This document shows, piece after piece, positions 11,807 through 49,100 of a DNA stretch of 64,000 nucleotides (position 1 is the stretch's first letter; each line of letters starts with the position of its first letter). The notes below the pieces were generated by a model. It was not told the origin of the DNA. It searched no databases and was given only the letters and a program-made list of their open reading frames with translations. Where the stretch lies: NCBI GenBank assembly GCA_045545855.1, contig JAZQBR010000203.1, positions 1,264-65,263 on the forward strand, read 5' to 3'. The translations under genes were made by a program, and so were the position numbers. The DNA is from Kiritimatiellia bacterium (lineage in GTDB: Bacteria; Verrucomicrobiota; Kiritimatiellia; RFP12; UBA1067).

Positions 11807-12856
11807 GTGCGGGGAATGTCCATAAAGGGCGCGTTTCTTTCTATGCAGATAACAGTCAAATCATCATACCCCAAGGGCTGGCTTGACTATGACGGCCAAG
11901 TCGAGAAACTGAAGAAGCGAGGTCTGAAAATTGACGATGTGGAATTTGCCAAGCAGTTCCTTGCGTATTCCAACTACTACCGATTTACTGGCTACTGCCT
12001 CCGATTCCAGCACAAGGACGAATCCGGCGAGCGCGTGTTCAATGACGGTGTTTCCGTCTCCGACATAATCGACATCTACAAAATTGACAAAGGCCTCCGA
12101 GATTGTGTTTCAGATGCACTCGGAGCGATTGAGATTAGTTTCCGTTCCGCCGTTGCATACCATTTTGCGGAGGCACACGGGGCTTTTGGACATACGATAA
12201 AGGAAAATTTCGTCCGTCCATTCATAATGCGCCGGACAGATGCAAATGGTCGAGAGCAGCCATCCCCTTATGACGAGTGGCATGAGGGTCTTGTCTCTGA
12301 AACGCGGCGTTCAAATGAATTGTTCGTCAAACATTTTGAGGCGAAATATCTCCAGTTCCCCGATCTTCCTATCTGGACTGCGCTTGAGATATGCTCCTTC
12401 GGAACACTCTCCAAGATGTTCAAGAATATGCTGCGGTTTGACATGAGACCTATCGCCGCAAGATATTCTCTTCAACCTTCGACGCTGGATTCATGCATGC
12501 ATTCCTTCGTCTATGTCCGCAACATATGTGCGCACCATAGCAGACTGTGGGACAAGGAATTCGCCATATCTCCACAACTGCCGCCCGGCAGGAAATGGGA
12601 TGTCGTGCGCAATGCGAACAAAAAGTTGTATGCGGTAGCGATGTTGGTAAATTGGATGCTCGCGCATGATTTCTTCGGGAAAGCGATGCATTCAAACTGG
12701 AAGAAACGTTTTGAGACCGTCGTCGACTCTCTCTTCGATAGATTCCCAGAACTAGCACACCACACAGGTATTCCCGCCGACTGGAAGAACCAAGAAATTT
12801 GGTCTTCCATCAAGCCGGCTCAACCGCCCACGGAACCTAACCCATCTTCACTATAG
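11807..12856 (+). CDS. Abortive infection protein, Abi_2 family (AbiD/AbiF-like)
   Basis: Conserved Abi_2 block LEICSFGTLSKMFKNM and the signature VRNICAHHSRLWDKEF. Alternative start at 11843 (MQITVKSSYPKGW). Confidence 0.75.
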   Translation: MRGMSIKGAFLSMQITVKSSYPKGWLDYDGQVEKLKKRGLKIDDVEFAKQFLAYSNYYRFTGYCLRFQHKDESGERVFNDGVSVSDIIDIYKIDKGLRDCVSDALGAIEISFRSAVAYHFAEAHGAFGHTIKENFVRPFIMRRTDANGREQPSPYDEWHEGLVSETRRSNELFVKHFEAKYLQFPDLPIWTALEICSFGTLSKMFKNMLRFDMRPIAARYSLQPSTLDSCMHSFVYVRNICAHHSRLWDKEFAISPQLPPGRKWDVVRNANKKLYAVAMLVNWMLAHDFFGKAMHSNWKKRFETVVDSLFDRFPELAHHTGIPADWKNQEIWSSIKPAQPPTEPNPSSL

Positions 12857-12932: not shown

Positions 12933-13020
12933 ACTCATCCACTCCTAACTCCCCCACTCCTAACTCCCCCACTCTCAACTCCTCCACTCTCAACTCCCCC
13001 ACTCACTCACTTTATACTTC
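12900..13020. repeat. Second CT-rich microsatellite-like array (AACTCC/CACTCT units)
   Basis: ctccaactcaaaactcatccactcctaactcccccactcctaactcccccactctcaactcctccactctcaactcccccactcactcac. Confidence 0.6.
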
Positions 13021-13376: not shown

Positions 13377-13426
13377 AAATGATAAAACAGGTCAGACCTA
13401 TTTTATCATTTTAGTCTTCGCGGGGC
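13377..13426. repeat. 50-bp direct repeat copy 1 containing a 13-bp perfect-arm palindrome (GATAAAACAGGTC/AGACCTATTTTATC)
   Basis: aaatgataaaacaggtcagacctattttatcattttagtcttcgcggggc. A second copy lies at 13551..13600. Confidence 0.55.
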
Positions 13427-13550: not shown

Positions 13551-13600
13551 AAATGATAAAATAGGTCAGACCTATTTTATCATTTTAGTCTTCGCAGGGC
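13551..13600. repeat. 50-bp direct repeat copy 2 with internal palindrome
   Basis: aaatgataaaataggtcagacctattttatcattttagtcttcgcagggc, 174 bp from copy 1. Confidence 0.55.
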
Positions 13601-19946: not shown

Positions 19947-20633
19947 TCATCTACGCCGCCAAGACTTAGTCTCAACAAACGGCGCTTTGATTATCTTTTC
20001 CACCAACGGATAAATACCGGCATAATGCGAAGCGTTCAGACATTCGGGGAATTGGCCATGCGTTGCAGCCCATGCCTTGGCTCGCCTAATTGCAACCTCT
20101 GTTTGCGTCATCTTCCCTACATCGAACTGTGCTCCGCTCTTGTGATCATACTTCGGCATCAACTTGTGCAACAGACCATGCAGTTCATGCCTATCGAGAG
20201 GGAAGTTGTCCATTTTAGAACCATCCTCTGTGCAGAGGACTCCCCAGATTTCTATACACGGCGACATGAACGCCACATGGATACGATAAAAAACATCACG
20301 CGATTCGCATCTAGCTATATCGCGGACCTTGCAATCATCATCGCATCTTTCCGGGCACTTCGTCAAAACCGACCTGACCTCCAACATCTCCTTAGCCTTC
20401 GCATCGTGGTCGAAAACAACCCATATTTCCGCATTGGGATTATGACGCAAGTCCTTGGCAACTTCGACAGCAAACCTCAAAGCTCGTTCCAACAGGACCA
20501 CGGGCGACGAGACGGATGGCTTCTGCACAATCCTAATGTCGCGATTCTTCGCCAAAGCCTGCAAGTAGCCCAGCTCCGTCTTGCCCTCATGAAAGAGGTA
20601 GATGACAGGCGAAACAGCATAATCATTCGCCAT
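19947..20633 (-). CDS. RloB-like protein (AbiLii-like partner of AAA_21 ATPase)
   Basis: N-terminal VIYLFHEGKTELGYLQAL resembles the RloB ilvcEGekTEpnYf motif. Overlaps the 3' end of the upstream ATPase gene. Internal ATG at 20633. Confidence 0.5.
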   Translation of the reverse strand: MANDYAVSPVIYLFHEGKTELGYLQALAKNRDIRIVQKPSVSSPVVLLERALRFAVEVAKDLRHNPNAEIWVVFDHDAKAKEMLEVRSVLTKCPERCDDDCKVRDIARCESRDVFYRIHVAFMSPCIEIWGVLCTEDGSKMDNFPLDRHELHGLLHKLMPKYDHKSGAQFDVGKMTQTEVAIRRAKAWAATHGQFPECLNASHYAGIYPLVEKIIKAPFVETKSWRRR

Positions 20634-22028: not shown

Positions 22029-22844
22029 TCACCTAAACCACTTATAGCCGTAATAGCCGATGTACTCGTGGATGAACGAGTTATTGCGGGCGAAGGCGTC
22101 GAAGCTCGGCAACAGACCACGCCATTTGAAAGGTTCATCCTTCCACGGCAATGCCTGATAATCCGTCGCGGCCGGGATGCACTCTATCTCAGGCGCATAC
22201 TTTTTGAACATGTACAAGCTTCGTTTCATGTGACATGCGCTCGTCACCAACAATATACTTGGCTTCTTTGCGACCTCTGCTCCTTTGAGCCTCTGCGTTA
22301 CAATTTCTCCAACAAATTTTGCGTTCTCCTCGGTGTTCACCGCCTTGTCCTCCAACACAACAGCCTCACGCGGAACACCCAAATCCACAAGCAATTTCAC
22401 ATCCCCGAACTCGGCACCGACATTGCTTGAAATGACGATAGGCGCTTTCCCAGCCTTCCAGAGCCTTGCCGCATGCCATGGCCGGTCCGCCGCCTCATTC
22501 ATGCAGGCGTAGGGATAGCATTCGTCACCCCAAACGCCTCCGCCCATCAAAACAATCGCATCAGCTTTCGTCATATCCTCCGCCAACTGTACAGGGTAAT
22601 CCTCTTCAAGCGGCAACGCCAGCCAACCGCCGACAATCGGCATCGACCAAAACCAGAACCATGACAAGGCCGTTCCCAAAGTCCACATCACTGCTTTACG
22701 CTTTTTGAGCAGGGCAAACGTCTGCCCCAAGGCAACAGCCACAATGCCTACAAACAGCGGATTGGCGACAAAACCGACAATCTTATTTATCGTGTTCACA
22801 ATTTCATGCAACCATGTAGAACATGTAGAACGTATAGAAACCAA
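22029..22844 (-). CDS. YdcF/ElyC-like DUF218 family protein (start uncertain)
   Basis: ILLVTSACHMKRSLYMF and VLMGGGVW motifs of DUF218 with an N-terminal TM segment. The listed N-terminal residues STCSTWLHE are encoded by a CATGTAGAA repeat arm, so the true start is probably downstream. Confidence 0.55.
   Translation of the reverse strand: MVSIRSTCSTWLHEIVNTINKIVGFVANPLFVGIVAVALGQTFALLKKRKAVMWTLGTALSWFWFWSMPIVGGWLALPLEEDYPVQLAEDMTKADAIVLMGGGVWGDECYPYACMNEAADRPWHAARLWKAGKAPIVISSNVGAEFGDVKLLVDLGVPREAVVLEDKAVNTEENAKFVGEIVTQRLKGAEVAKKPSILLVTSACHMKRSLYMFKKYAPEIECIPAATDYQALPWKDEPFKWRGLLPSFDAFARNNSFIHEYIGYYGYKWFR
22812..22840. repeat. Solo arm of TGTAGAA-unit element (ccatgtagaacatgtagaacgtatagaa)
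   Basis: Three tandem (C/A)TGTAGAAC units with no inverted partner nearby, between the GT4 stop and the ydcF-like gene. Confidence 0.5.
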
Positions 22845-22864: not shown

Positions 22865-24130
22865 TCAACTGACCACTTCCCCGTAAATCTCCATTAGTCG
22901 CTTGTAGTTCGCTTCTTCTGAATATTTAGTTTCAGCCTCGTGCTTTGCCGCTGCACATACTTCGTCATAATCTGAACGCGACAGAAACCGCTTTATCGCC
23001 GCCGCACATGCCTCTGCATTGCCAGCCTCAAACACTTCACCGAAACGGTTTTCCTGCACGATCTCTGGCAAGGCACCAAGATTGCTCGTCACAACAGGCG
23101 TTCCCTCTAGCATTGATTCCACGACCGTCAATCCAAATGTCTCCCACCATTCACTTGGAAGGACAGTAGCCTTGGATTTAGCCATAAGACGGAGTACTTC
23201 AGCGGCTGATTTCAGGCCGACAAACTCAACATCCCCCCCGTCGGCAAGTTTCTCAAGCTCCTGCCGATCAACACCATCGCCGACTATTATCAGCTTGAGG
23301 TTATTTAACCATGTAGAACATGTAGGAGCATGTAGATGTTCTTTATGACAAATAATCTTGAAAGCCTTTATAAGAGTTTCGACACCTTTCTCTTTCGATA
23401 GCCGCCCAACATAAACTATCTGATCTTTCTTAAGGATGGGGGATGAGGGATGTGGGATGGGGGATGGGGGTGTTATTCTCATCCCTCCTATCTCATCTCG
23501 CATCCCTATCACAAAATTGCCCTTCACAGCAATTTTGTGTTCTGGCCAGCCATATTCAACCATCTTCCGCTTCTGGAACTCGCTCAGTACAATAAACCTT
23601 GAAACCCACTTTGGCAACCGCCTTCGATAAAGCGCAATGTTGATTGCAAGCGGCAATGTTGCCGCCAGACTTCCGCGATAGCAACGATACTTGATTCCAT
23701 CACATACACATCTCTTATCCAAACACAGCGAGCACACTTTCCCGTCCCTCGTCGGCACGCCTGCCGCACAAGCCATTCGATAGTTGTGTAGAGTCATCAC
23801 GACCTGCGCATACTTGCTCGCCGCACGAACCGCCAACGGGCTGATAAGCGGGAAGGTGTTATGGAAGTGAACGACATCCGGCTTGAATTCTCTACATTTC
23901 TTCGCAACCGCCCGCGCCGCGAACGGATTGCCGACCGTACACAGCGCCCCTTTGATTTTACCCAAGATCCTTTTAATTGCATTGCCGCACCGTATTTCAT
24001 CACTATGCCGGGCATATACAGCGACCTCATGTCCATGCTTCTCCAGCATGGCCTTCTCTGCCTCGAAGACCTTGTTCTCGCCTGACGGCGCCGATGAGCC
24101 ATAGTAGTTATGGACAAGGAGAATCCTCAT
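22865..24130 (-). CDS. Glycosyltransferase, GT4 family, carrying two in-frame repeat-element insertions
   Basis: MRILLVHNYYGSSAPSGENKVFE... N-domain and ...ETFGLTVVESMLEGTPVVTSNLGALPEIV C-domain. The segments HLHAPTCSTWLNN and ITPPSPIPHPSSPIL are encoded by repeat elements at 23301..23337 and 23435..23510. Confidence 0.7.
   Translation of the reverse strand: MRILLVHNYYGSSAPSGENKVFEAEKAMLEKHGHEVAVYARHSDEIRCGNAIKRILGKIKGALCTVGNPFAARAVAKKCREFKPDVVHFHNTFPLISPLAVRAASKYAQVVMTLHNYRMACAAGVPTRDGKVCSLCLDKRCVCDGIKYRCYRGSLAATLPLAINIALYRRRLPKWVSRFIVLSEFQKRKMVEYGWPEHKIAVKGNFVIGMRDEIGGMRITPPSPIPHPSSPILKKDQIVYVGRLSKEKGVETLIKAFKIICHKEHLHAPTCSTWLNNLKLIIVGDGVDRQELEKLADGGDVEFVGLKSAAEVLRLMAKSKATVLPSEWWETFGLTVVESMLEGTPVVTSNLGALPEIVQENRFGEVFEAGNAEACAAAIKRFLSRSDYDEVCAAAKHEAETKYSEEANYKRLMEIYGEVVS
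23301..23337. repeat. TGTAGAA-unit element arm inside GT4 CDS (tatttaaccatgtagaacatgtaggagcatgtagatg)
   Basis: Shares the TTTAACCATGTAGAAC terminus with the elements at 28984 and 34190 and is read in-frame. Confidence 0.55.
23435..23510. repeat. G-rich palindromic element (GGGATGAGGGATGTGGGATGGGGGATGGGGG ... CTCATCCCTCC...CATCCCTATC) inside GT4 CDS
   Basis: Tandem GGGATG units on the left and complementary CATCCC units on the right. Read in-frame (PPSPIPHPSSPI). Confidence 0.5.
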
Positions 24131-24600
24131 GTTTAATTAGCCGTGTAGAACGTGTAGATCGTGTAGAATTATGCGGTGATGGTACGACGCTCGAATTTAT
24201 AGGAACCAAAATTTACAAGAAGTCCAACAGGATGCCGCGTGATCTTCAAGTAGTTTATAATCTGGGCAAAGTGTTCAGGAGCAAACGTTTTAACGGCCTT
24301 AAGCTCAACTATCAAGCTATCATTTACAAACATGTCTACAAAATACTCCCCGACACAATATCCGTCCCTGTCGAACACTTTAAGCGGTTTTTGTCGTTCG
24401 ACTTTATAGCCCGCAATTACAAGCCTATGCTCCAAGGCCGCCTCATAAACCTTTTCCAGCAATCCCGTGCCAAAGTATTCATGCACCCCATACGCAATCT
24501 GACCTACATCAGCTGCCAGTTTCCTTAATTCATCAGCGCAACCATCCATACTTCCCACCTTCTGCACGTTTCTACACGTTCTACACGGTTAGAACCCTTC
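24131..24600. mobile_element. ~470-bp cassette bounded by inverted arrays of CGTGTAGAA units, carrying a GxxExxY gene
   Basis: Left terminus ttaattagCCGTGTAGAACGTGTAGATCGTGTAGAA (24133..24168). Right terminus cacgTTTCTACACGTTCTACACGGttagaacc (24561..24600) is its inverted complement. The left end abuts the GT4 start codon and the right end overlaps the 3' end of the kinase-like gene. Confidence 0.55.
24169..24549 (-). CDS. GxxExxY family protein (PD-(D/E)XK-like small protein)
   Basis: MDGCADELRKLAADVGQIAYGVHEYFGTGLLEKVYEAALEHRL... contains the GLLEKVY = GxxExxY motif. About 126 aa from ATG at 24549 (the ORF track begins at an upstream GTG). Confidence 0.65.
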   Translation of the reverse strand: MDGCADELRKLAADVGQIAYGVHEYFGTGLLEKVYEAALEHRLVIAGYKVERQKPLKVFDRDGYCVGEYFVDMFVNDSLIVELKAVKTFAPEHFAQIINYLKITRHPVGLLVNFGSYKFERRTITA

Positions 24601-25465
24601 CCCTCCTTCTACACGGATATGCATCAATTCCCAACAGCCCTTTGACCTGCTTCTTAAACCAGGATTCATCCTTGCCCTCGACCCACTGCCCTGCGTCTTC
24701 CCAATCCCAGACATACAATTTGCCATCCACGATAGAACAGTTCCACGGAGCAAAGTCGCCGTGCGACAAACCCGCCCTTCTCAATTCGTCCAGAAATACA
24801 TAATGCTCCTTCTGCATCCGAACAGGGCTTTTGCCTTTCGGCAATACCGACTGCGCACTCCATGTCCATGCCCCATCATGCCCGACATCGCCTATGGCAA
24901 CAGGTACTTGCGCACACAAAGGCGTCATCATCAGCCTTTTCAGCACGTCCACCTCTTCCCTGATCGCCTCTGCCGCCTTATCTGTCCTTCCCAACTTCAA
25001 TATGATTTCATTTGTGTTTAACACAGAGTCACAGAGACGCAGAGGATTGGGAGAGTCAGAAGAAATCTCTGTGCCTCTGTGCCTCTGTGTTAAAACCTTC
25101 ACCAGCACCGTCAACTTGGACTTCGCCGAATCGTTTCCCATATAAAGCGTTATCCACTCTATCTTCTTTGCGAACTTTGCGTTCTTTGCGGCTAAATCAT
25201 CTATCGCTTTCCCTATTACCTCGTGTCCATCCAGTTCATCAAACCGCTTGATTGGCCCATGAACCATCTTCTCGATGGGCAGCCATGCGAACCATCCCAG
25301 AACCTTTACAGCCCACTTCAGCACCTTGCGCCCTGGCGTGTGCATCGCCAGCCCTGCCCGCTTGCTTGCGGCAGATGAAAGGTCAATCCACACGCGCGGT
25401 TTCGGAGACGGAAGGCCAAGGAATCTGTGCATAGATATTTTCATGTGCACCTCATGATACAACAT
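24581..25465 (-). CDS. Phosphotransferase-family kinase-like protein (APH/choline-kinase fold)
   Basis: Brenner motif LSHGDFAPWN and DWE motif VWDWEDAG. An in-frame palindromic element lies at 25019..25092. The C-terminus overlaps the cassette TIR. Confidence 0.5.
   Translation of the reverse strand: MLYHEVHMKISMHRFLGLPSPKPRVWIDLSSAASKRAGLAMHTPGRKVLKWAVKVLGWFAWLPIEKMVHGPIKRFDELDGHEVIGKAIDDLAAKNAKFAKKIEWITLYMGNDSAKSKLTVLVKVLTQRHRGTEISSDSPNPLRLCDSVLNTNEIILKLGRTDKAAEAIREEVDVLKRLMMTPLCAQVPVAIGDVGHDGAWTWSAQSVLPKGKSPVRMQKEHYVFLDELRRAGLSHGDFAPWNCSIVDGKLYVWDWEDAGQWVEGKDESWFKKQVKGLLGIDAYPCRRRGRVLTV
25019..25092. repeat. Palindromic element built from CACAGAG units (cacagagtcacagagacgcagagg ... cctctgtgcctctgtg) inside CDS
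   Basis: Tandem 7-mers on the left, their complement on the right, and a ~25-bp loop. Translated in-frame within the kinase-like protein. Confidence 0.5.
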
Positions 25466-26725: not shown

Positions 26726-27692
26726 CTAAATCAGTCTGAACATCGTCTTATAGTCGTATGCACAATCACAGAATGTCTGACTTAAGAATCTCGCTGCACA
26801 GCGCGCCAGCCACGAAACGGCAAGAGATGCAATAAAACCGCAAATATAGCACAATGGGAAATACGAGGTAAACATGAATGTCTTTGCGAGCCAGCCGACG
26901 AGATACATCTCCAGTGAAAGTCCTCCTACGAACATCACAAGAAAATTGACGACTGGATGTCTCATTGCACGAATGCAGAAATCCGACATGCAAAGCCTAT
27001 ATAGGCCCCAAACGCCAACCAAAAGCGGCACGCCCATTAGAATCTGCAATCTGGCAATTAGCTGGACTCGACCTGCCAGATAATATATTGCATAAAATAG
27101 CACAATCCCCCCCCCCCCCGAATAAAAGCGGCAAAGAGATTGTTCTTTCGACCTCGTCTTTTCTCTGTGCCATATATGCGCCCTCTATGAAAAACACAAA
27201 GAACAGCAAGTATTTCAAACTGTTATCGCCAAAGAGCCATGCACCACAGTCAACATCCTGACATCCCCATCCGAATGCATATGCTATTAATGTCATCCCC
27301 AAAGAAATCCAAACCAGCAACCCAAGCCGATTTGACATCAATCTAACTATAAAATAATAAACACCATAATAAACAAGCAAACACGTCACAAACCAACCAC
27401 TCCCGGCAAGCGCAAACGCAACCGAACAGCCAAGGCCCAGAAAACCCTTAACGAACGCCGCAACCAAGCAGGTTGGCCACAGTCTAGCCAGCCTACGCTT
27501 CATCCATAGATCAAAGCGGACCATCCTCCCTAATTGGCAGAGATAACCAGAAACGAAATAGAACAGTGCGCATCCAATACCACCGCCCGTGGCCAGGAAA
27601 GAGTATTTTCCATAGTAAGGCCCAGCCAAGTGATTGAATATCATCATGGTGGCAATGAACTTAAGGATATCTATACCTACTATTCTATTCAT
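26726..27692 (-). pseudogene. Acyltransferase family 3 gene split by a frameshift at a poly(C)13 tract (candidate phase-variable gene)
   Basis: The N-terminal part (ORF 26997..27692: MNRIVGIDILKFIATMMIFNHL...LFGGGGD) and the C-terminal part (ORF 26726..27103: LFYAIYYLAGRV...) overlap in different frames across C13 at 27107..27119. A 12-C or 15-C tract fuses them into a ~315-aa protein matching the 312-aa paralogue. Confidence 0.6.
27107..27119. repeat. Homopolymeric C13 (G13 on coding strand) tract
   Basis: cacaatCCCCCCCCCCCCCgaataaaag, read directly. Confidence 0.8.
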
Positions 27693-27768: not shown

Positions 27769-28980
27769 TTACAATACCCTCCTAATATTGCTATAATCGC
27801 AGGAATCAACTCCGATTTCACACAAAACAGTCGAATCCACGCCCCACAATTTACGTGCCTCTCTTTGGTTTTCCCCAGTGGCGACAATCAAGCGATTTGT
27901 TTCGGCGGCACGTCTTGCTGCCATTCGAGGACGCAGAAGGAAATGAGAATGACACCAGTTTATTATATTCCTTGCAGCAAATTCAAGCACACCAAACATA
28001 CCCATAAGGGGCAAGAGCCGCCAAGCAGTATAGCCCAGTCCACCGATAGGCCCCCAGGCAAAAGGGACTTTAAGTTTCCAAAGATAACCCGGCTCGCGAA
28101 AGCCCACCATATTCAACTGATGCACAAGATCGAATCCAACAATTTTGTGCAAATCACACGCTTTCTTATATGCACGCCATTGCCAGACGCGATAGAACCA
28201 ATAGTAGCTTGGGGGCCATATCTTGCGAAGCAACCGCGCTCTTGGCTTGCGAATGAATGTCCAGTGGACGTTCTGCATTTCGTCGGGATGATCGGCAAGA
28301 TATTTTTCAATATCCGGACGCCACTTCTCTTCTTCGACAATTGCCCACACTTCGTTCTCCTTGGCAATCATCTTTAGGAAATGCCACCCCATGCCCGGCT
28401 CCGACCCCCTGTATGGGGAACAGGCGTAAACTGAAACCAAAACTTTTTTGCCGCCACCGCCATAAATATCTTTCAAGACTTTTGCTTTTTCCGTCCAAAG
28501 ATACCGCTTGGCCTTTTCAATTGCGCCCCTTGACAATTTTTCACGCAATTCCCGATTCTTCAACCTGCAAATTGCCTTTCCGAACCCGGCAATCACTTCT
28601 CTGGGGAGCCCAATCGGGATTTTTATTCCGCAAGTATCATCAACTACATCTGAAAAGCCGCAGTGGTCGAGGCAGATGACAGGCTTACCCGCAGACAACG
28701 CTTCGATCAGAACCGTAGAGGTCAAATCCCTTAGACTTGTAATTACAAAGACATCTGAGTCCGCGACTACTTTCTGCGCTTCGGCCTTCGGCAGCCAACC
28801 ATGCCACGTGATTTTGTCGTTGACGCCAAGCCGCGACGCCAAACGCTGATAATACTTGCGCAACTTGCCGTCACCCAGCACATCAACCCGTATAGAACTG
28901 TTTTCGATACCGGCAACGGCATTCTCAAGAACAGACAAAGCCTTGCCGCGCGTATATTGTCCTGACCAAGCAATCTTCAT
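27769..28980 (-). CDS. GT4-like protein with inverted domain order (C-terminal Rossmann domain first, N-terminal domain second); possibly a rearranged gene
   Basis: The first ~160 aa carry C-domain motifs (VDVLGDG...DVFVITSLRDLTSTVLIEALSAGKPVICLDHCG). After GGGGKK comes an N-domain (KVLVSVYACSPYRGSEPGMGWHF...FDLVHQLN...IVATGENQREARKLWGVDS). Confidence 0.45.
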   Translation of the reverse strand: MKIAWSGQYTRGKALSVLENAVAGIENSSIRVDVLGDGKLRKYYQRLASRLGVNDKITWHGWLPKAEAQKVVADSDVFVITSLRDLTSTVLIEALSAGKPVICLDHCGFSDVVDDTCGIKIPIGLPREVIAGFGKAICRLKNRELREKLSRGAIEKAKRYLWTEKAKVLKDIYGGGGKKVLVSVYACSPYRGSEPGMGWHFLKMIAKENEVWAIVEEEKWRPDIEKYLADHPDEMQNVHWTFIRKPRARLLRKIWPPSYYWFYRVWQWRAYKKACDLHKIVGFDLVHQLNMVGFREPGYLWKLKVPFAWGPIGGLGYTAWRLLPLMGMFGVLEFAARNIINWCHSHFLLRPRMAARRAAETNRLIVATGENQREARKLWGVDSTVLCEIGVDSCDYSNIRRVL

Positions 28981-28983
28981 TTT

Positions 28984-29228
28984 ATTTAACCATGTAGAGC
29001 GTGTAAAGTTATGCCGTAATTGTGCGACGCTTTAATTTGCACGAACCAAAGTTTACGAGAAGACCTGCAGCGTTATGAAGAGTCGATTCATAAGCCTTTT
29101 CAAATAAGTCATTCTCAAAATATTCGTATACATCATACGCCACTTGCCCTACTCCCGAAGCGAGTTCTCTCAATTCATCTACTTCATCCATGCACCACCT
29201 CCACTCTACACGATCTACACGGCTATAC
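28984..29228. mobile_element. Degenerate second copy of the CGTGTAGAA-TIR cassette with a decayed GxxExxY gene
   Basis: Termini tttatttaaccATGTAGAGCGTGTAaag (28984..29008) and cacctccactCTACACGATCTACACGGctatac (29195..29226). The internal sequence is homologous to 24165..24330 but carries a deletion. Confidence 0.5.
29009..29191 (-). pseudogene. GxxExxY gene remnant (internal deletion)
   Basis: MDEVDELRELASGVGQVAYDVYEYFENDLFEKAYESTLHN...AGLLVNFGSCKLKRRTITA parallels the intact copy (…VGLLVNFGSYKFERRTITA) but lacks ~35 central residues. The listed ORF 29009..29305 reads through the flank. Confidence 0.5.
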
Positions 29229-30569: not shown

Positions 30570-31657
30570 CTACTCTCCTTGACCAATCTCTCAACCGACA
30601 ACCTCAGGTCATATTTGAGCAACGATTCGTTGCTACGGGCAGGCAGACGGTCAATGGCCGCCTTGAAGTCAACCATATCGTTACAAGCAAAAACAGTACC
30701 GCTTATGCCATCCTCTATCATAACCGCCGCGCCCAAATGGCTGGCGACCACACACGGAGTTCCCCACTGCAAAGCCTCTGCGACAACTGCTCCGAATGTT
30801 TCTGAATGACTGCACAATACAAGACCGTCCGCCATTGCCATCATCGCGTAGAGGGAATCACCCTCCTTCCTGCCAGCGAACACCACCCGATCATCAAGTT
30901 TCAACGCGGCTACCATCGCTTTTAATTCCGTATCCAATACTCCGTCGCCAACTAAAACAAGTCCCGTTGTTTTAGGTTGCTCTCGCATCTGCTCTATTAG
31001 CCAAGGCAGATTCTTGACTTTCGCAAAGCGCCCTACGAACACAAGTACACGGTTCCATACCTTGGGGCAGTTCGCTTCTCGCCATGCACGCCCCGCCGCA
31101 TAGATTTTGTCTGCGTTCTTTCGCATTGTCGCCGTATCATGGATTATGGGCACGACAGAGTAGTTGTTGGTGGTTAGTCGATAGTCGTCGGTTGATAGAG
31201 AGCGATAAGCGTCAGCGGCGGCTTGACTGGGAACGATTATCTTTTCGACATTTCGCAGAACCCAATCGCGCATGATACGTCGCAATCCTCTCCGTGACCT
31301 AATCTGTTCGGCGCTGTCATCCATGCTCGTCCATATTTTGGCGCTAACGAGCCCAAGCTTCTTCAACAGAACCAGTTCAAGCGTGAGCGGGCTTGCTTCG
31401 TAGGCAAGAATGATGTCTGGACATTCACGACGGACAATCCCAAGGATGCCAGTGCGGATGCATCGTCCGCGTATGCAAACGCCGTTTGTCAAATGCTCAT
31501 ACGGCACTCTAAGCCTTTCCAGCAATGCTTTCTGGTCGAACTTCTGAGTCTGCAAATTCTCCTGAAGGAATACCATTTTCAATTCCGCCAGCTCACCGAG
31601 CAGATTGAAGAAATCAACCCGGTATGGCGCAAGAGCAGGATGGAAGCAGATAATCTT
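30566..31657 (-). CDS. Glycosyltransferase, GT4 family
   Basis: Starts at MKIICFHPALAPYRVDFF (ATG at 31657, overlapping the upstream stop). C-terminal ETFGAVVAEALQWGTPCVVASHLGAAVMIEDGISG. Confidence 0.65.
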   Translation of the reverse strand, partial: KIICFHPALAPYRVDFFNLLGELAELKMVFLQENLQTQKFDQKALLERLRVPYEHLTNGVCIRGRCIRTGILGIVRRECPDIILAYEASPLTLELVLLKKLGLVSAKIWTSMDDSAEQIRSRRGLRRIMRDWVLRNVEKIIVPSQAAADAYRSLSTDDYRLTTNNYSVVPIIHDTATMRKNADKIYAAGRAWREANCPKVWNRVLVFVGRFAKVKNLPWLIEQMREQPKTTGLVLVGDGVLDTELKAMVAALKLDDRVVFAGRKEGDSLYAMMAMADGLVLCSHSETFGAVVAEALQWGTPCVVASHLGAAVMIEDGISGTVFACNDMVDFKAAIDRLPARSNESLLKYDLRLSVERLVKESR

Positions 31658-32859
31658 CATTGACCGCGAACTACTCCTTCCATCCATTGATACATTCCGC
31701 CGACAAGAACATCCCACTGCTTGCGGGCAAGGAACCACTTCTTTATCGTCCCGAACTTCGCTCGTTTACGCTCTTCGTCCCAAGCAAGCACTTCACGGAT
31801 CTTGGCGACATAATCTTCCGCCGTGTCGCCTTCCGCAAACTCCACGACCTCGGCATAGTCAGGCGACAAGCTTTCAAGTCGCGTACTGACGACCGGGCGA
31901 CCGAAACTAAGGTAGTGCGGCAGCTTGCTTGGGTAGTTTAATATGTTGTCGGGATGATGGGGATCGCGTACATTCAGCAATACATCCGCGTTACGGCATA
32001 TGCGGTTCATCTCTTCCTCTTCCACGAAGCCTGGCAACTCAACGTATGGGTTGTCGCCAAACAACTTCGCAAGGATACGGCAACTGGACTTGCCGCAGAA
32101 TATGAACTTTATGTCGGGCGCAGCCATTTTGCGGACAACCTCAACCATGAAATCAAGTCCGCGCCACTGATCGAGCGCTCCTGTATGGACAAGTGTCTTA
32201 GTCGTTAGCCGCTGGTCGTTAGCCGTTAGCTTGTGGTCATCAACACCACTATCGACTAACGACTGACGACTATCGACTTCTTCTCCTCCACACCAACCAT
32301 CCGCCCCGCCGTCCATATGGTATTTTGGCACATCAACAGGGCAATGCGTATGCACCCACCACGAAAGCGAGACGATGCCGCTTGAATATTGCCCAGCCCG
32401 TTTCACCCAACCCCAGTCATCCTTGCGCGGATCGTCGCCATCAAGAATTATGGGGAAACACGGAACACCCATGCCGCGCAGGATTTTCATTGTGCGCACA
32501 AGGTAGGGCAAATGGCAATTGTAAAATATGGCCACATCGATTTTCTTCTGGCGAGCGATTTTCCTTGCCTCGACCGGGTATCGCCATACATACCACCAGT
32601 CGCGGAAATATTTGATTACAGGATATGAAAGTGCCACGCAATCCCACCCGTCAGGGTAGAGACGCTTATCGTATCCACGCCACAACACCTTGCCCTTCGG
32701 CCATGACACTTCGTATGTGTGGGTGAGTGCCGTCACATTGGATATCTTCGAGAGTGCAGTCAGGAACCCTCGCGCCCATTTCGCCGCCGCAAGCGAGACC
32801 GGGCGGTTCATCTGCGCCCATTCGCTGTCGTTCGGGCCTATGTAGAGTATGTTCAGCAT
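31657..32859 (-). CDS. Glycosyltransferase, GT4 family, with in-frame palindromic insertion
   Basis: MLNILYIGPNDSEW... and a GT4 C-domain (VLLNVRDPHHPDNILNYPSKLPHYLSFGRPVV). The segment VDSRQSLVDSGVDDHKLTANDQRLT is encoded by the GTCGTTAG-unit element at 32198..32278. Confidence 0.65.
   Translation of the reverse strand: MLNILYIGPNDSEWAQMNRPVSLAAAKWARGFLTALSKISNVTALTHTYEVSWPKGKVLWRGYDKRLYPDGWDCVALSYPVIKYFRDWWYVWRYPVEARKIARQKKIDVAIFYNCHLPYLVRTMKILRGMGVPCFPIILDGDDPRKDDWGWVKRAGQYSSGIVSLSWWVHTHCPVDVPKYHMDGGADGWCGGEEVDSRQSLVDSGVDDHKLTANDQRLTTKTLVHTGALDQWRGLDFMVEVVRKMAAPDIKFIFCGKSSCRILAKLFGDNPYVELPGFVEEEEMNRICRNADVLLNVRDPHHPDNILNYPSKLPHYLSFGRPVVSTRLESLSPDYAEVVEFAEGDTAEDYVAKIREVLAWDEERKRAKFGTIKKWFLARKQWDVLVGGMYQWMEGVVRGQ
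32198..32278. repeat. Palindromic element of GTCGTTAGCC units (tagtcgttagccgctggtcgttagccgttagc ... cgactaacgactgacgactatcgac) inside CDS
   Basis: Tandem units and their complements. A partial copy of the unit (accaacgactaacgacc) also occurs intergenically at about 49078..49100. Confidence 0.5.
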
Positions 32860-32860
32860 A

Positions 32861-33907
32861 TTACGCCCTTCCCCCTGTCAACAAATTGAATATCCTCGGC
32901 GAACAACGCTTTGAAAGGAGGCCGACAAGGAGCGCCCCCCCCATCCCAGACAAGATTTTAAGGAGATACATCGTCAACGTTTGCAGATGAAACGCCAGCC
33001 CAACCCGTAACGCCACGGAAATCATCAATGTGTGGATTGCATAGATAAAGAACGTTAATCCGACAAATCTCCTGCTCAATGGCGATACACGATCAACCAT
33101 TTGCAGATTGGCAAACACTGCACACACGCCAGAGAAGACAAGCACTTTGTCTGCAATGTCAAACGCCATTTTGTTGCGATACACGCCGAACAAGACCTTG
33201 CAAACAATACTTGTGCAGAATATGGCAAGCACAAGATGTCTTCTATCGACAAGTGTTTTTCGCAATTCTAAGAAACTGTCGGCATCGCGCATTCTGAATC
33301 CAACCCATGATCCAACTGCGAGCCACAAGAAATTACCTGCGGCAAGCGGCAACGGCAGATAGTACCAGAACGTGCCTATCCACCCGGCAAGGAAGACGCA
33401 AATCAATACCACCCCATGCAATTTGTTCCGCAATAACGGAAGAATCAGGGGCGCAGCAAGCACATATATGAAAACTGTCTGCAAATACCAGAACTGCATG
33501 CAGCCAAGGCGGACATATGGGTCATAACCAAAAATCTTCGCCATAATTGACAAACCTTCATGCAATTCCCCAGACAGAAGCGCAAGCGCAAGATAAATGG
33601 CGTTCCATAGAACGAATGGAACATACAGCGTGATGAGTCGCTTCCTTATTTCATTGGTAAACCATGTGAACCATCCATTGCCCGGATATCCCTTGACAAG
33701 GAAGAACCCCGTGATCGTGAAGAAGATCGGTACGGCTATTCGTGGAACCGTGTATGTCCCCAGAAAATAGAACGCCGCCTCCAATTTGCCGACAGGCATC
33801 TCCCCAGCGAACCACGGCGCCATAGACTGGCAATGGATCGCGACAACAAGCAATGCGCACAGGAAAGCCACCGTGCGCAGACGCTCGCTTGTCTTGGCGG
33901 ATATCAT
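32861..33907 (-). CDS. Acyltransferase family 3 membrane protein
   Basis: N-terminal RTVAFLCALLVVAIHCQSM, with about 10 TM helices. A homopolymeric G-run encodes MGG near the C-terminus. Confidence 0.7.
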   Translation of the reverse strand: MISAKTSERLRTVAFLCALLVVAIHCQSMAPWFAGEMPVGKLEAAFYFLGTYTVPRIAVPIFFTITGFFLVKGYPGNGWFTWFTNEIRKRLITLYVPFVLWNAIYLALALLSGELHEGLSIMAKIFGYDPYVRLGCMQFWYLQTVFIYVLAAPLILPLLRNKLHGVVLICVFLAGWIGTFWYYLPLPLAAGNFLWLAVGSWVGFRMRDADSFLELRKTLVDRRHLVLAIFCTSIVCKVLFGVYRNKMAFDIADKVLVFSGVCAVFANLQMVDRVSPLSRRFVGLTFFIYAIHTLMISVALRVGLAFHLQTLTMYLLKILSGMGGALLVGLLSKRCSPRIFNLLTGGRA

Positions 33908-35196
33908 TTGCCTCGCTCCTGTTTGACAACGTTTTCAAGCGCGGCAATGTAACGCTTCACGACAGCGGTCATCATGAATCGTTCTTTCACGTTCCTTACG
34001 GCATTGCCAGACATCTTTGCCCTCGCCGAATAATCAAGCATCAAGTTCTCGATGCATTCCGCCAACTTCTCTGGTCTTGTTACGTTGCATACGACACCGC
34101 CCGCAACGGATGATTCCGATCTTTCCTTTTCATTTAGCCGTGTAGAACAGGGAGAACATGAAGGATTTTCTACACGCTCTACATTTTCTACATGGTTAAA
34201 TCCATCGATTCCCAACACCCACGGCACCGCGCCACTCTTCTCGCCGCCGACGCACGGGACTCCATGCGCCATCGCCTCTATGAAAACCATGCCAAAACTC
34301 TCTTCCAAGGACGGACTGCAAAATACATCCGCCTCTTTCTGCAACGCTCGCCGTATCATCTCCGAAGAGCCATAACCTCGCAACTCTATGCACCCGGAAT
34401 CGATGAGACGACCCATGCCATTCTGCCGCATCCAAGGATCGGCACCGCGTTGATCCATATAATGTCCATACACCACCAGCCGCCATTCCGGGTGTCTCGC
34501 ATGGAGCAGCGCAAATGCCTTGAAAAGCGTCTTAGAGTTCTTGAGGCGACCCCACTGCGTGACACACAATATCGTCCGCGCTTCGAGGCGGATTTCAATC
34601 CTGCCGGCCTGGGCGGTTTCTTCCTTAATGGCATTTGGAATAATCTCCACCGGCTTGCGATAGAAGTTGAAGTTTCGCAGATCTTCCGCCATGTGCGGAG
34701 AAACGGTAGCCATGTGCTTGACATGTGGAAAAACAAAGAACTGTGAATATATCGCCTTGAAAAGCGATGCGGCATTGCGCATTGTCCATACGACCCGCCA
34801 AGGAGAGTCATGCGCCACAACAAGCGTTGGAACGCCACTTTTCAGAGCAGCACGTGCATACTGATATGTCCAGTTCGCCAGTATGACATCCGGCTTTGCC
34901 TTATGTATTTCGTCAACCATACATGACACTTCTTTTGAATAGAACGTCATGTATTGATAGCGGCAACGTCTTTCGGGAACAATCCTGATCTCCAGACGGC
35001 CAGCCGTATAGGTGGTTGCCGCGGAATGGTTCATGTCTGTGACGACTACAGAAACCTCATGCCCGGAATCAACCAATGCAGCGACCAGATCGCTTCCGTA
35101 GTTGAAATCCCATCTGACGGACGGCAATTGCCTGTCGAACTTGAATCGTTCTGCAAGACAAGACAGCGTGACACGCCCTAAAAACGCTATCTTCAT
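33904..35196 (-). CDS. Glycosyltransferase, GT4 family, with an in-frame miniature CGTGTAGAA-TIR element
   Basis: Starts at MKIAFLGRVTLSCL (ATG at 35196). C-domain ...ADVFCSPSLEESFGMVFIEAMAHGVPCVGGE... The segment GFNHVENVERVENPSCSPCSTRLNEKERSE is encoded by the element at 34133..34202. Confidence 0.65.
   Translation of the reverse strand: MKIAFLGRVTLSCLAERFKFDRQLPSVRWDFNYGSDLVAALVDSGHEVSVVVTDMNHSAATTYTAGRLEIRIVPERRCRYQYMTFYSKEVSCMVDEIHKAKPDVILANWTYQYARAALKSGVPTLVVAHDSPWRVVWTMRNAASLFKAIYSQFFVFPHVKHMATVSPHMAEDLRNFNFYRKPVEIIPNAIKEETAQAGRIEIRLEARTILCVTQWGRLKNSKTLFKAFALLHARHPEWRLVVYGHYMDQRGADPWMRQNGMGRLIDSGCIELRGYGSSEMIRRALQKEADVFCSPSLEESFGMVFIEAMAHGVPCVGGEKSGAVPWVLGIDGFNHVENVERVENPSCSPCSTRLNEKERSESSVAGGVVCNVTRPEKLAECIENLMLDYSARAKMSGNAVRNVKERFMMTAVVKRYIAALENVVKQERGK
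34133..34202. mobile_element. Miniature (~70 bp) cargo-less copy of the CGTGTAGAA-TIR element (MITE-like) inside a CDS
   Basis: tttagCCGTGTAGAACagggagaacatgaaggattTTCTACACGCTCTACATTTTCTACATGGTTAAAtcc. Both termini match those of the 24131 and 28984 cassettes, with only ~20 bp between arms. Confidence 0.55.
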
Positions 35197-35606
35197 CTCT
35201 TGCCTCCAAGCAATGCAGGACAAAATCTCAATATTGCGACAGAAGCAACCCAGCTGACGCATATAGTCGCAAACATAATGCCGCAAAGCAGAATCGCAAG
35301 ACTTCCGCCAGTCAGGATGCATCCAGATGGCAATAAGCGGACGGACGCGACGATGATGAATTTATGCAATAGCATTATTCCGAGCGAACATTCCCCTATG
35401 CGCTTCCAAAGTGGATTCGAGAGGCATCCCGCGATGCCGGCAGACAGCGCAGCGCCGACAAGTCCGGACATCCATGCGATGTAACTGAACATAATCCTGT
35501 TAGACCAACCATTATCGTGCAACCAGTTAACCGACATGGCCACAGCCACAATGACAGGCACCCCAAGCATGCTCCACATCCCCCGGCAAACGACTTGCAT
35601 CATATC
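35193..35606 (-). CDS. Possible small polytopic membrane protein downstream of wzy (start uncertain; may be an acyltransferase C-terminal remnant)
   Basis: The listed ORF 35193..35912 overlaps the wzy-like gene by ~190 bp. Its distal 135 aa (MMQVVCRGMWSMLGVPVIVAVAM...IMLLHKFIIV...) are strongly hydrophobic. Confidence 0.25.
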   Translation of the reverse strand, partial: DMMQVVCRGMWSMLGVPVIVAVAMSVNWLHDNGWSNRIMFSYIAWMSGLVGAALSAGIAGCLSNPLWKRIGECSLGIMLLHKFIIVASVRLLPSGCILTGGSLAILLCGIMFATICVSWVASVAILRFCPALLGGKR

Positions 35607-47292: not shown

Positions 47293-47641
47293 AATATTAT
47301 ACCATTTCGCTGAAGTCCGGTCAATGGGACGCGAAACAGTTTATTGCTTCAAACTGTTGCATTGTTTTCCCGCACAAGATCAATCTCTAACTTGTTCAAC
47401 GCACATTCCCACGAGAGCATAATCCCTCCCGAAAACTTTCCGCAACAGTTTTCCTGTTGCATGGCGCGACAATGACGCATGGTCAGGCAGATTGTCGCGC
47501 GTTGCAGATGTGACACATTTTCCGTTCTCCACGACTTTCCAATGACCGCCTCGGGGCTGGCCGGGAAAGTCTCGGTTGACGCTGTCGGCCAGACCTGACG
47601 GCAATGAACAGAACAACACAATCCCGAAAGGAACCCGGAAA

Positions 47642-48106
47642 ATGGAAACAACACGGAACAAAGACAATCGCGGCTATGAGCTTGACGCCCTTGCCCGAAA
47701 AATGGAACGCGCCGCAGAAGTTGATTATATCCGCTGGGCGAACGCAAAGAAACGCCGCGCATGGACTGCCGGGGCATTGCGTCTCGACGACTGCCTGTTC
47801 GATGAAAACGGGGATGAGAGGGAAAACTCCCTGCTTTCCGACAACGGCAGAGGTGCCGAGTTGATTCGCCGCTGCGGGGAACCTGCGCCAAAGGCGAACA
47901 ATGCTTGGCGTAAGGAGTTCCGCCGCGTATTTTCGACCCTGAACGCTGTCGAGCAAGGCATTGTCCTCGCGTTGTCGAAGGATTCCCGCCCTCAAGTCGC
48001 CGCCCGCATGGCCTGGACGAACCGCATGCGCGTATATCGCACCATCGCGAAATTGCGCAAATTGCTCGCAACCGCCCATTCCCTCTGGCTGCGCCGCTGG
48101 GAATAA
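47642..48106 (+). CDS. Putative DNA-binding regulator with sigma-70 region-4-like HTH
   Basis: Internal ATG of ORF 47576..48106 (METTRNKDNRGYELDALARKMERAA...). C-terminal EQGIVLALSKDSRPQVAARMAWTNRMRVYRTIAKLRKLL resembles a region-4/LuxR-type HTH. Higher GC than neighbours. Confidence 0.35.
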   Translation: METTRNKDNRGYELDALARKMERAAEVDYIRWANAKKRRAWTAGALRLDDCLFDENGDERENSLLSDNGRGAELIRRCGEPAPKANNAWRKEFRRVFSTLNAVEQGIVLALSKDSRPQVAARMAWTNRMRVYRTIAKLRKLLATAHSLWLRRWE

Positions 48107-48242
48107 AAAACTTTCGCAGATGCCGCGTTGCACATCTCTCGGTTTCTGCGATTGTCAAATGAACACCTCTGTCGGCGATGCAGGACGCCAGGTGGCATCC
48201 CGCCGGCGAGGTTGAAGAAAGCACAAATAAAGGAATAAAGTT

Positions 48243-48977
48243 ATGGCTGCTGTTAAGCCTCAATTGAAATACCGCGTCGTCAATGGCTACAACCCAAAGA
48301 CGCGCGGAACCTGCAAGCGCCCCCAGATCACGGAACGCGAAACCTACTACCTCGATCAGGTGGTGCAATTCGCGCTGGACAACGGATTCGTCCGTGGCCA
48401 GTTCCAGGACATGAAGGGTGCGCTCAACGGGTTCATCGAATGCATCCAGTACCTCGGGCTGACCGGCAAGGCCGTCTCGCTCAACGACTGGCTCAGAGTC
48501 CATTCCGAACTCACGGGAACGGTCGGCGAAGACTACCAGCTCACGTCCGGCAACGACTTGCGCGTCCGCATCCAGGCTCTCAAGGAACTGAAGACGAGCG
48601 TGGACAAGTTCAGCTGGACGAACGTGAGCGACACGGGCGTTCTGCCGAAGATCGATTCGCTCATGTACGTTGGCGCTCCGAAAAGCGGTGAAATCAAGAA
48701 GTCTCTGGCCATCATCGCCACGGGACGCAATCTTGCGTTCAACGCCGCCTTGGGCGACACCGTGACGCTTATCTGGACGGAAGGCGACGAGGCCAAAACC
48801 GTTACCCTCACGCCTGCCGAGAGCGACTATTCGCACATGAAGTTCAACTGGCCGTCTGCATTGGCTGACGTGCCGGACGGAACCGAAATTACGTTCACCT
48901 TCACTCTCCACGGCGGAGTGGAAGGAGGCGCGGCCCATACGGCCACGAAAAGCGTGAAGCTTCTCGCTGCCGCATAA
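48243..48977 (+). CDS. Hypothetical protein (244 aa)
   Basis: Clean ORF with strong codon bias. The antisense 579-aa ORF 47349..49088 is an artefact of this high-GC block. Confidence 0.55.
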   Translation: MAAVKPQLKYRVVNGYNPKTRGTCKRPQITERETYYLDQVVQFALDNGFVRGQFQDMKGALNGFIECIQYLGLTGKAVSLNDWLRVHSELTGTVGEDYQLTSGNDLRVRIQALKELKTSVDKFSWTNVSDTGVLPKIDSLMYVGAPKSGEIKKSLAIIATGRNLAFNAALGDTVTLIWTEGDEAKTVTLTPAESDYSHMKFNWPSALADVPDGTEITFTFTLHGGVEGGAAHTATKSVKLLAAA

Positions 48978-48986
48978 GCTAATTAT

Positions 48987-49061
48987 CTCACGCAAAGTCC
49001 GTGACGTACGCAAAGTTTCATCCCTCAGGCGCCTTTGCGTCTTTAGCGGACTTTGCGTGAG
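48987..49061. repeat. Palindromic element of ACGCAAAG units (tctcacgcaaagtccg...cgcaaag ... ctttgcgt...cggactttgcgtgag), 10 bp after the stop codon
   Basis: Perfect 15-bp outer inverted repeat and inner CGCAAAG/CTTTGCG pairs. No downstream U-tract. Confidence 0.5.
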
Positions 49062-49100
49062 CGATCTATCCATACCACCAACCACCAACGACTAACGACC

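Follow-up and report, generated by a model that had tools for sequence, protein, structure and literature searches.

A decayed GxxExxY gene cassette with inverted tandem-repeat arms in a Kiritimatiellia polysaccharide locus, a candidate remnant of a selfish element

The DNA analyzed here is a 64,000-nucleotide (nt) stretch of contig JAZQBR010000203.1 from a Kiritimatiellia bacterium, hereafter called the window. Its segment 28986-29225 is almost certainly a dead copy of a discrete, repeat-bounded cassette, of which an intact copy lies ~4.5 kb away. The cassette consists of a single small gene of the GxxExxY family (PF13366, TIGR04256), enclosed by two inverted arms that are built of short tandem repeats. 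Taken alone, the remnant is an ordinary pseudogene. The interest of the finding rests on an architecture that is regular across a large protein family of unknown function and that was exposed by this remnant. On balance, the cassette is probably a selfish nuclease element, the mobility of which we infer.

The remnant, the intact cassette and the same site in relatives

The two copies of the cassette comprise the following features.

28986..29225, minus strand: decayed GxxExxY cassette, whole, 240 nt (intact cassettes are ~450 nt)
29200..29225, minus strand: eroded 5' arm of the remnant, gene strand TAGCCGTGTAGATCGTGTAGAGTGGA
29009..29191, minus strand: open reading frame (ORF) of the remnant, 60 codons in frame, MDEVDEL...RRTITA
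28986..29008, minus strand: eroded 3' arm of the remnant, gene strand CTTTACACGCTCTACATGGTTAA
24137..24592, minus strand: intact reference cassette, whole
24556..24592, minus strand: 5' arm of the intact cassette, CTAACC plus three 9-mers (the 9-mers at 24556-24587)
24604-24616: extra partial arm beside the intact 5' arm
24169..24549, minus strand: intact GxxExxY gene, 126 amino acids (aa), PF13366 E=2e-32, TIGR04256 E=2e-33
24137..24168, minus strand: 3' arm of the intact cassette, three 9-mers plus GGCTAA, with CGTGTAGAA three times at 24142-24168

A preliminary description of the window had recognized a second, decayed copy of the cassette at ~29 kb, and pairwise alignment of the two loci bears this out. 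In a global alignment on the minus strand, the remnant and the intact copy (24137-24592) aligned end to end except for one 198-nt internal gap, with 203 of the 267 aligned bases identical (76%). The similarity extended beyond the 5' arm (20/23) and the 3' arm (22/28) to the N-terminal (63/92) and C-terminal (45/57) coding blocks, the latter of which contains the sequence match that had been given as an example. The homology had been placed in the first ~170 bp of the cassette interior; it actually covers both ends of the gene, 24169-24243 and 24443-24549. At the protein level, BLASTP aligned an N-terminal segment (21/36 identical, E=4e-13) and a C-terminal segment (16/27, E=7e-9) of the remnant with the intact protein. 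Chance or low-complexity similarity was ruled out by the alignment statistics and by shuffles.

The reading frame of the remnant retains both termini of the 126-aa protein, as described (~38 N-terminal and ~18 C-terminal residues), but the loss between them amounts to ~66 residues (198 nt) instead of ~35, and includes D72, E82 and K84 of the PD-(D/E)XK core. The glycine of the eponymous motif is also lost (DLFEKAY, compared to GLLEKVY in the intact copy). The remnant scored 15.9 bits against TIGR04256, which is below the family cutoff of 35, and a profile search gave no Pfam match; the ORF is a GxxExxY family member by descent only. Each of its arms contains two recognizable 9-mers, compared to three in the intact cassette. 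Nonsynonymous divergence (dN) from the intact copy was 0.21, whereas values of 0.07-0.10 were obtained between intact copies at the same codons; such a 2-3-fold excess is expected once a gene has been inactivated. The outer ends of the remnant, TAGCC... and ...GGTTAA, are those of all cassettes. The upstream 448-aa gene stops at a TAG inside the terminus of the 5' arm (GTA TAG CCGTGTAGA), and the 3' arm ends 5 nt before the ATG of the next gene (28980..28978).

For the same-site comparison, loci were retrieved via homologs of the upstream 448-aa gene. In locus L222, where this homolog is 84% identical at the aa level, the next feature is a GxxExxY cassette with an intact 124-aa gene; its arms are complete, with two left arms in tandem, and a canonical glycosyltransferase (GT) gene and an acyltransferase gene lie beyond it. 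An intact gene at this site, which the preliminary description had suggested looking for, is therefore present elsewhere. In locus L223 (448-aa homolog, also 84%), a ~150-nt remnant with recognizable arm ends precedes the gene of a 419-aa GT starting with MKVAWSG. The right junction is common to L223 (GGTTAAATAAATGAAAGTTGCATGG) and the window (GGTTAAATAAAATGAAGATTGCTTGG), which share GGTTAAATAAA(A)ATGAA. No cassette is present at the site in locus L003 (72% nt identity), where the two genes overlap by an ATGA stop/start. The site thus shows a decay series, with an intact cassette in L222, the 60-aa remnant in the window and a smaller remnant in L223, and it is empty in L003.

That the 60-aa ORF functions as a truncated protein, e.g., as a dominant-negative or DNA-binding fragment regulating the intact nuclease, is barely credible. 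The deletion is in frame and introduced no stops, and the start codon with its purine-rich spacer is kept; yet an in-frame outcome is expected by chance in about 1 of 3 cases. The whole beta-sheet core is gone together with D72/E82/K84 and the motif glycine, the nonsynonymous divergence is raised as given above, the arms are eroded, and the copy of the site in L223 has decayed still further. The ORF is also unique, because a search of 5.8 billion protein clusters with the 60-aa remnant returned only itself (P0001, a 73-aa gene call). Exact look-ups of the 448-aa neighbor and P0001 proteins matched no entry.

The protein encoded by the intact copy scored 115 bits against TIGR04256 (cutoff 35) and 112.3 bits against PF13366 (PDDEXK_3; cutoff 22). 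Its motifs are G29-L-L-E32-K-V-Y35, D72 and E82-L-K84, and the GxxExxY motif, D72, E82 and K84 were invariant or nearly so in 41 homologs. An AlphaFold model (pLDDT 83) gave weak Foldseek matches (best E=0.016), the top ones of which all have the PD-(D/E)XK nuclease fold. A sequence search for relatives of solved structure found none. The protein matched no transposase family, no PHROG and no PADLOC family in a meaningful way, and had no relatives in viral contigs; a defense or phage origin of the cassette was rejected on these grounds. The exact 126-aa protein was found on several gut-metagenome contigs with unchanged arms and neighbors (an APH-like gene and a GT4 gene in the window). In at least three other samples, this 24-kb copy is frameshifted (56 aa + 82 aa). 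The 56-aa cluster members, considered as a possible second in-frame deletion, proved to be these frameshift alleles.

The cassette as a unit and its arms with and without the gene

The cassettes share the layout TTARCC(GTGTAGAnC)x3, ~8 nt, ATG...TAA, (TCTACACGn)x3GGYTAA, with the ATG of the next gene following within 2-15 nt. The ~8-nt spacer between the 5' arm and the GxxExxY start carries the ribosome-binding site. When six cassettes taken from different gene contexts were aligned, homology started and stopped exactly at TTARCC and GGYTAA. Compared in pairs, the six were 89% identical over the arms and ~40% identical in the flanks; within the gene, identity at first, second and third codon positions was 83%, 90% and 42%. 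The dN of GxxExxY between cassettes was 0.09-0.12, with synonymous divergence (dS) saturated. Low dN and conserved arms despite saturated synonymous sites indicate that the protein and the arm sequence are both strongly constrained. Synonymous divergence was saturated between the two copies of the window as well, which argues for an old split and not for a recent local duplication.

More than 120 distinct 90%-identity clusters of proteins were found at 79-88% aa identity to the intact protein, one of them labeled as a Kiritimatiellae metagenome-assembled genome (MAG). Many of these close homologs come from very short contigs, a typical feature of repeats. Two of the homologs were placed in their operons, and both have arms as in the window: one cassette lies between GT2 and Polysacc_synt_2 genes (L129), the other has an FnlA-like gene on one side and a 167-aa ORF accompanied by Epimerase_2 on the other (L132-L141). 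Cassettes thus occupy at least four different gene junctions, in different strains or species and not in one genome, and all Kiritimatiellae contexts are polysaccharide loci. Terminal inverted repeats (TIRs) of ~30 nt with sharp boundaries, as well as multiple unrelated sites and same-site presence/absence (across different strains or species), are properties of TIR elements and miniature inverted-repeat transposable elements (MITEs). The transposase family expected of a transposable element is missing, as the only ORF of the cassette encodes a ~125-aa PD-(D/E)XK protein.

In some cassettes (L145 2400-2600, L132 4001-4040, P0024/P0098), the first GxxExxY codons are arm sequence, e.g., MNSRVERAERVD..., and gene callers frequently run the GxxExxY ORF upstream through the arm (e.g., ...NREDRVERVERV...). 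The GxxExxY N-terminus and the arm overlap in evolution.

The association of gene and arms was followed through the family in a metagenome scan of 80 GxxExxY loci with 35-89% identity, where distant loci are those with 35-53% identity, from other lineages. For each locus, the 130 nt upstream and the 130 nt downstream of the ORF were compared, and an inverted repeat score of at least 14 was taken as an arm pair. Inverted arms bracketed 14 of the 21 close and 21 of the 45 distant GxxExxY genes, compared to 3/45 for mismatched pairs and 3/57 and 3/80 for neighboring same-strand ORFs in the same loci (Fisher p ~1e-8). Several apparently arm-less loci had mis-set ORF ends or variant arrangements, with the arms still there. 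The distant arms comprise 2-4 tandem units (CACAAAG, CACAGAG, CACGAAG, CGCAGAG, CACTAAG) after (T)TGCC/AACC and are mirrored downstream; C[AG][CT]NNAG was strongly enriched upstream on the sense strand, and its complement downstream. The rumen MAG of locus L033, in which GTGTAGA arms are present as well, contains a distant paralog with a unit family of its own, CACGAAATA. Cassettes are oriented like their neighbors (45:6 upstream, 39:9 downstream). Unrelated housekeeping genes flank the cassettes of other lineages, for example asnS and rpoN (L191), PhoH and MiaB-like, or cystathionine synthase (CBS) and lyase genes; matching neighbor sizes suggest three more loci at the asnS/rpoN site. The family comprises 9680 GxxExxY representatives at the 50%-identity level, and the design of a gene between inverted tandem arms is common to its distant members.

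Arms also occur without the gene. The arm motif CCRTGTAGAWCRTGTAGA, with up to 3 mismatches, occurred 13 times in the window, compared to 0.12 occurrences expected from shuffles. These correspond to 10 distinct arms, of which four belong to the two cassettes, two to an empty hairpin and four are solo arms.

34134..34199, minus strand: arm-only ('empty') hairpin of the 9-mer family, in frame in GT4 gene 33904..35322
23305..23337, minus strand: solo arm, in frame in GT4 gene 22865..24130
22810..22839, minus strand: solo arm at the junction of a GT gene and a DUF218-like ORF
11186-11203 and 11242-11273, plus strand: two solo arms

The homolog of GT4 gene 33904..35322 in L003 (48% identical) is devoid of exactly the 35-aa hairpin insert. 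A scan of genome contigs with GTGTAGAWCGTGTAGA gave at least 120 arm loci, ~40 of them in Kiritimatiellae, 'Verrucomicrobia' or rumen MAGs, while the others look like chance matches; a GxxExxY ORF lay within 8 kb at only one locus among the 120 arm matches listed. The usual arm module in Kiritimatiellae-type MAGs is TTTAGCC-GTGTAGAAC-GTGTAGATC-GTGTAGA, often abutting other 3x tandem 7-9-mers; an inverted partner frequently lies directly beside it, giving an arm-only hairpin (L050, L052, L063, L084, L094 and L110). The two copies in the window do share their termini, as the preliminary description stated, but these termini are not specific to the cassette, being those of a repeat that is dispersed across Kiritimatiellae-type MAGs mostly without a GxxExxY gene.

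Several other hairpins and arrays of short tandem units lie in the window. The APH-like ORF 24581..25465 (minus strand) contains at 25017-25094 an in-frame hairpin of (CACAGAGG)x3 and (CTCTGTG)x3 with TTTAAC...GTTAAA ends. In L001-L003, where the flanking gene is ~77-90% identical, exactly this site is occupied by a different hairpin with CGTGTAGA-type 9-mer arms and a ~50-nt loop (L001 5417-5546). A solo module, (CTTTGCG)x3GGCTAAATC, is found at 25166-25198. In GT4 ORF 22865..24130, a GGGATG/CATCCC hairpin with five GGATGGG heptamers lies at 23434-23500, where L001 (7005-7158), L002 and L004 have a solo TTAACC(GTGTAGAAC)x3; at 23305-23337 the window has (TCTACATG)x3GGTTAAAT, and L004 (1440-1650) has (TCTTTGCG)x3GGCTAAA instead. 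Phase variation of the GT is conceivable, because the gain or loss of heptamers or octamers would shift the frame. An in-frame hairpin of inverted tandem CGTTAGC/ACTAACG lies at 32200-32278 in GT ORF 31657..32859 (minus strand), and a hairpin of ACGCAAAG/CTTTGCGT at 48987-49061, at the start of ORF 47349..49088. ORF 11807..12856 is flanked at 11008-11116 and 12939-13004 by long direct arrays, in which 7-8-mers of the CCACTCC/CCAACTC type reach up to 4.4 copies of a 15-mer; the two solo 9-mer arms at 11186-11273 adjoin such arrays.

An Rfam search of the window found no known RNA family. In the predicted minimum-free-energy mRNA fold, the two arms of the cassette pair into a long stem (z = -2.4). 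Selection on an RNA stem was tested by counting arm-to-arm mismatches, where G.U and A.C were equally frequent (56:56). Symmetry at the DNA level agrees with this lack of asymmetry better than selection for a sense-RNA stem does, and the constraint on the arms exceeds pairing, since their sequence itself is 89% conserved with saturated synonymous sites. Splicing-like removal of the in-gene hairpins, considered because splicing endonucleases were among the weak fold matches, is disfavored: all five in-ORF inserts observed keep the frame and contain no stop codon, as would be expected only of translated sequence.

As to the neighboring genes, the preliminary description had placed the remnant exactly where the adjacent GT gene appears rearranged. 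In ORF 27769-28980 (minus strand, 403 aa, GT-like), residues 34-173 match the C-terminal part (256-403) and residues 179-314 the N-terminal part (2-130) of a canonical 413-aa GT. However, residues 1-395 of this ORF align with residues 1-410 of the 419-aa GT of L223 at 67% identity. The C-before-N domain order, full length there too, is therefore a conserved architecture that is older than the split of the lineages; rearrangement by the cassette was ruled out, and no link to the remnant remains. The ORF may encode a naturally permuted or fused GT. An Acyl_transf_3-like gene at 26726-27692 (minus strand) appears to be divided between two ORFs, 26997..27692 and 26726..27103, which overlap in different frames; a frameshift pseudogene or a sequencing error is probable. 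At the edge of the polysaccharide locus (19947-21900, minus strand), an AAA_21/AAA_15 (AbiEii-like) ATPase gene is accompanied by a 240-aa partner ORF, and a similar ATPase lies just upstream of the 448-aa gene homolog in L222 (956-2338); this may represent a defense-type gene pair embedded in glycan loci.

Two further repeats were noted in the window. A 35-nt inverted repeat at 13377-13411 and 13551-13585 (AAATGATAAAACAGGTCAGACCTATTTTATCATTT; 94% complementary, 139 nt apart), each arm of which is a near-perfect palindrome, is unrelated to the 9-mer arms. Nested GC-rich palindromes at 61229-61547 comprise a 24-nt tandem unit (GGCAGGGTGGCGCGACCCTGCCG x2.8) and continue with (TCAATCCTG)x3.4 and (ACCTCTAC)x2 to end with CGGCCAAAAATCC, resembling a composite array of repeat modules.

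Selfish element, passenger or host function

In the interpretation that we favor, the 29-kb segment is a pseudogenized ~450-bp cassette at the junction of two genes of a polysaccharide operon, in the same direction as these genes; the host is probably a member of the Kiritimatiellae from the human gut. The GxxExxY protein would recognize the heptamer or 9-mer units of its own arms and break the DNA, and repair of such breaks, in a homing-like or transposition-like manner, would copy the arms-gene-arms unit to new junctions or into pre-existing arm hairpins. Expression of the cassette would rely on read-through from the host operon. The inserted gene, being dispensable, would then decay by frameshift or internal deletion, with arm-only hairpins and solo arms as the end products, and the 29-kb copy would be an intermediate between cassette and arm-only hairpin. 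The preliminary description had likewise read the repeated cassette as a selfish element and not as a housekeeping gene. The unrelated sites, the intact, remnant and empty states of one site, and the frameshifted alleles agree with that reading, while movement itself is deduced from them.

Several points weigh against this interpretation. No transposition or homing event was observed, and no two identical cassette copies were seen at different sites within one genome; the saturated synonymous divergence of the two copies in the window likewise speaks against a recent duplication. A target-site duplication of TTAA or TTA would be indistinguishable from the inverted termini (TTARCC...GGYTAA), which include TTAA/TTAG, and the available empty site, in L003, is too diverged (72% nt identity) to fix the junction. 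The GxxExxY family has no demonstrated biochemical activity or known role in mobility, and the Foldseek matches to nucleases are weak. Pairing of the arms in the predicted mRNA fold may point to a role at the RNA level, and strong purifying selection across many lineages could equally mean a function that benefits the host. Because arms are abundant without the gene, another enzyme could move them. In addition, the comparison loci came mostly from searches with the GxxExxY gene itself, which biases the counts of genes with arms in one direction.

In an explanation that we consider rather unlikely, the arm modules are mobilized by an unlinked enzyme of the host or of another element, GxxExxY is a passenger trapped between two arms, similar to the capture of genes by composite elements, and the 29-kb copy is a degraded passenger. 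Arms indeed far outnumber genes (one GxxExxY ORF within 8 kb among the ~40 Kiritimatiellae-type loci listed), they lie next to or inside many other genes, and different unit families replace each other at one site between strains with no GxxExxY gene nearby. The association of arms is, however, GxxExxY-specific and very old, with distant members having arm families of their own and neighboring ORFs having none, and no other gene type was tightly bracketed in the loci examined. A passive passenger would also hardly keep its catalytic residues, with dN/dS far below 1, across hundreds of lineages.

This same purifying selection is what would be expected if the nuclease were useful to the operon, in defense or in recombination and repair of hypervariable glycan loci, with the arms as structural signals in RNA or DNA. 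In this explanation, which we judge improbable, the arms might form an RNase III processing stem, an mRNA stabilizer or an insulator that sets expression; copies at different sites might come from recombination in glycan loci, and the 29-kb copy might be an ordinary pseudogene. The predicted stem (z = -2.4), the co-directional position in operons with minimal spacers, and the polysaccharide loci in which all Kiritimatiellae copies lie, such loci being recombination hot spots, are consistent with it. Against it, the unrelated housekeeping neighbors in other lineages leave no consistent functional linkage, known defense families were not matched, arm mismatches show no G.U excess, and arm sequence is conserved beyond pairing. 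Moreover, the gene was repeatedly lost or broken in close relatives that kept the surrounding operon, and arms lie in frame within coding sequences, in which cleavage by RNase III would do harm.

Returning to the selfish nuclease element, a wider generalization can be offered tentatively and with some doubt: GxxExxY (PF13366) proteins may be the nucleases of an unrecognized class of minimal mobile elements. The autonomous form would be a ~450-bp cassette with CACNNAG-type arms that depends on operon read-through, and the non-autonomous forms would be hairpins and solo arms. These would spread over several phyla, entering glycosyltransferase and other enzyme genes in frame, and at fixed sites one strain would have a different module from another. 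Literature found under GxxExxY, PDDEXK_3, PF13366 and TIGR04256 consisted only of the family catalog (function unknown) and incidental mentions, and searches under family names and repeat descriptions gave no account of the gene-plus-arms architecture, which suggests a selfish DNA element of a kind that has apparently not been described. If GxxExxY acts on its own arms, the family would gain a testable function. Thousands of odd short tandem or inverted repeats in genomes of the Planctomycetes-Verrucomicrobia-Chlamydiae (PVC) group, Bacteroidota-like and other bacteria would then be explained too, among them the inserts through which surface-glycan enzymes of gut bacteria gain peptide loops. 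There is a practical side as well: repeats of the arm type interrupt metagenome assemblies, and gene callers err by running ORFs through the arms.

Comparison with known systems

Neisseria Correia/NEMIS elements are MITEs with TIRs of ~26-32 nt that lie at A/T-rich sites between co-transcribed genes. The cassette and its arms resemble them in these respects and as short TIR elements that are co-transcribed and can form RNA hairpins, with many copies and presence/absence differences between strains. We know of no autonomous partner of Correia elements, whereas here a gene-carrying version exists, whose product is no recognized transposase; in addition, the TIRs described here are internally tandem-repetitive, and their ends would mask a target-site duplication. 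Rickettsia palindromic elements (RPEs) reportedly lie in frame within protein-coding genes. Similarly, the palindromic modules in the window are in frame and stop-free in ORFs of otherwise conserved enzymes (GT4, APH-like and others), to which they add a peptide segment. Unlike RPEs, which are 100-150 bp long and have no associated gene, they are tandem-unit modules of 30-130 nt that share the arms of a nuclease cassette.

Free-standing homing endonuclease genes bring about 'intronless homing' in phages, and PD-(D/E)XK homing enzymes are known, e.g., I-Ssp6803I. Like them, the cassette carries a small nuclease gene placed co-directionally between conserved genes, present or absent at one junction among relatives, dispensable and decaying after fixation; its intergenic distribution would be compatible with such a gene. 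Terminal inverted repeats, however, are lacking in homing endonuclease genes, which usually target a single cognate locus, whereas the contexts of the cassette are many and unrelated and its nuclease role is predicted. Intervening sequences of 23S rRNA contain ORFs for S23p/four-helix-bundle proteins, are bounded by inverted repeats and are excised by RNase III. They share with the cassette a parasitic interpretation, a small ORF whose family is rich in paralogs, and flanking inverted repeats that can base-pair at the transcript level, but the cassette lies in protein-coding operons, encodes another protein family and shows no sign of RNA-specific selection for pairing.

Cyanobacterial short tandemly repeated repetitive (STRR) sequences are tandem 7-nt units in dispersed arrays, and to our knowledge no link between them and a flanked nuclease gene has been reported. 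Small dispersed repeats (SDR) are mentioned in PMC3116915. Both resemble the arms in having short units, tandem 7-nt ones included, that are dispersed, often in inverted pairs, and nested with other repeat families; their unit sequences and host phylum differ from those of the cassette arms.

The closest analog in logic is the REPIN-RAYT system, in which doublets of repetitive extragenic palindromic (REP) sequences form hairpins and are associated with REP-associated tyrosine transposases (Bertels & Rainey 2011, PMC3116915). In both systems, a small nuclease-type gene is flanked by cognate short repeats, which are dispersed as inverted doublets (hairpins) and singlets far in excess of the gene, as with the 10 arms and two cassettes of the window; distinct gene subfamilies have distinct repeat families, and the repeats form clusters and nested arrays. 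The enzymes differ, since RAYTs are HUH/Y1 proteins (IS200/IS605-like) and the cassette gene encodes a PF13366 protein of the PD-(D/E)XK type, not a RAYT. REPs are individually palindromic 20-40-mers, whereas the arms of the cassette are three tandem 7-9-mers that are not palindromic, and REPINs are extragenic, whereas cassette-type modules also lie in frame inside genes. RAYTs are single-copy per family and thought to be immobile, in contrast to GxxExxY cassettes, which are multi-copy and lie at unrelated sites. If GxxExxY acts on its own arms, the cassettes would represent a nuclease-plus-repeat system whose gene, unlike that of REPIN-RAYT, is multi-copy and itself bounded by the repeats.

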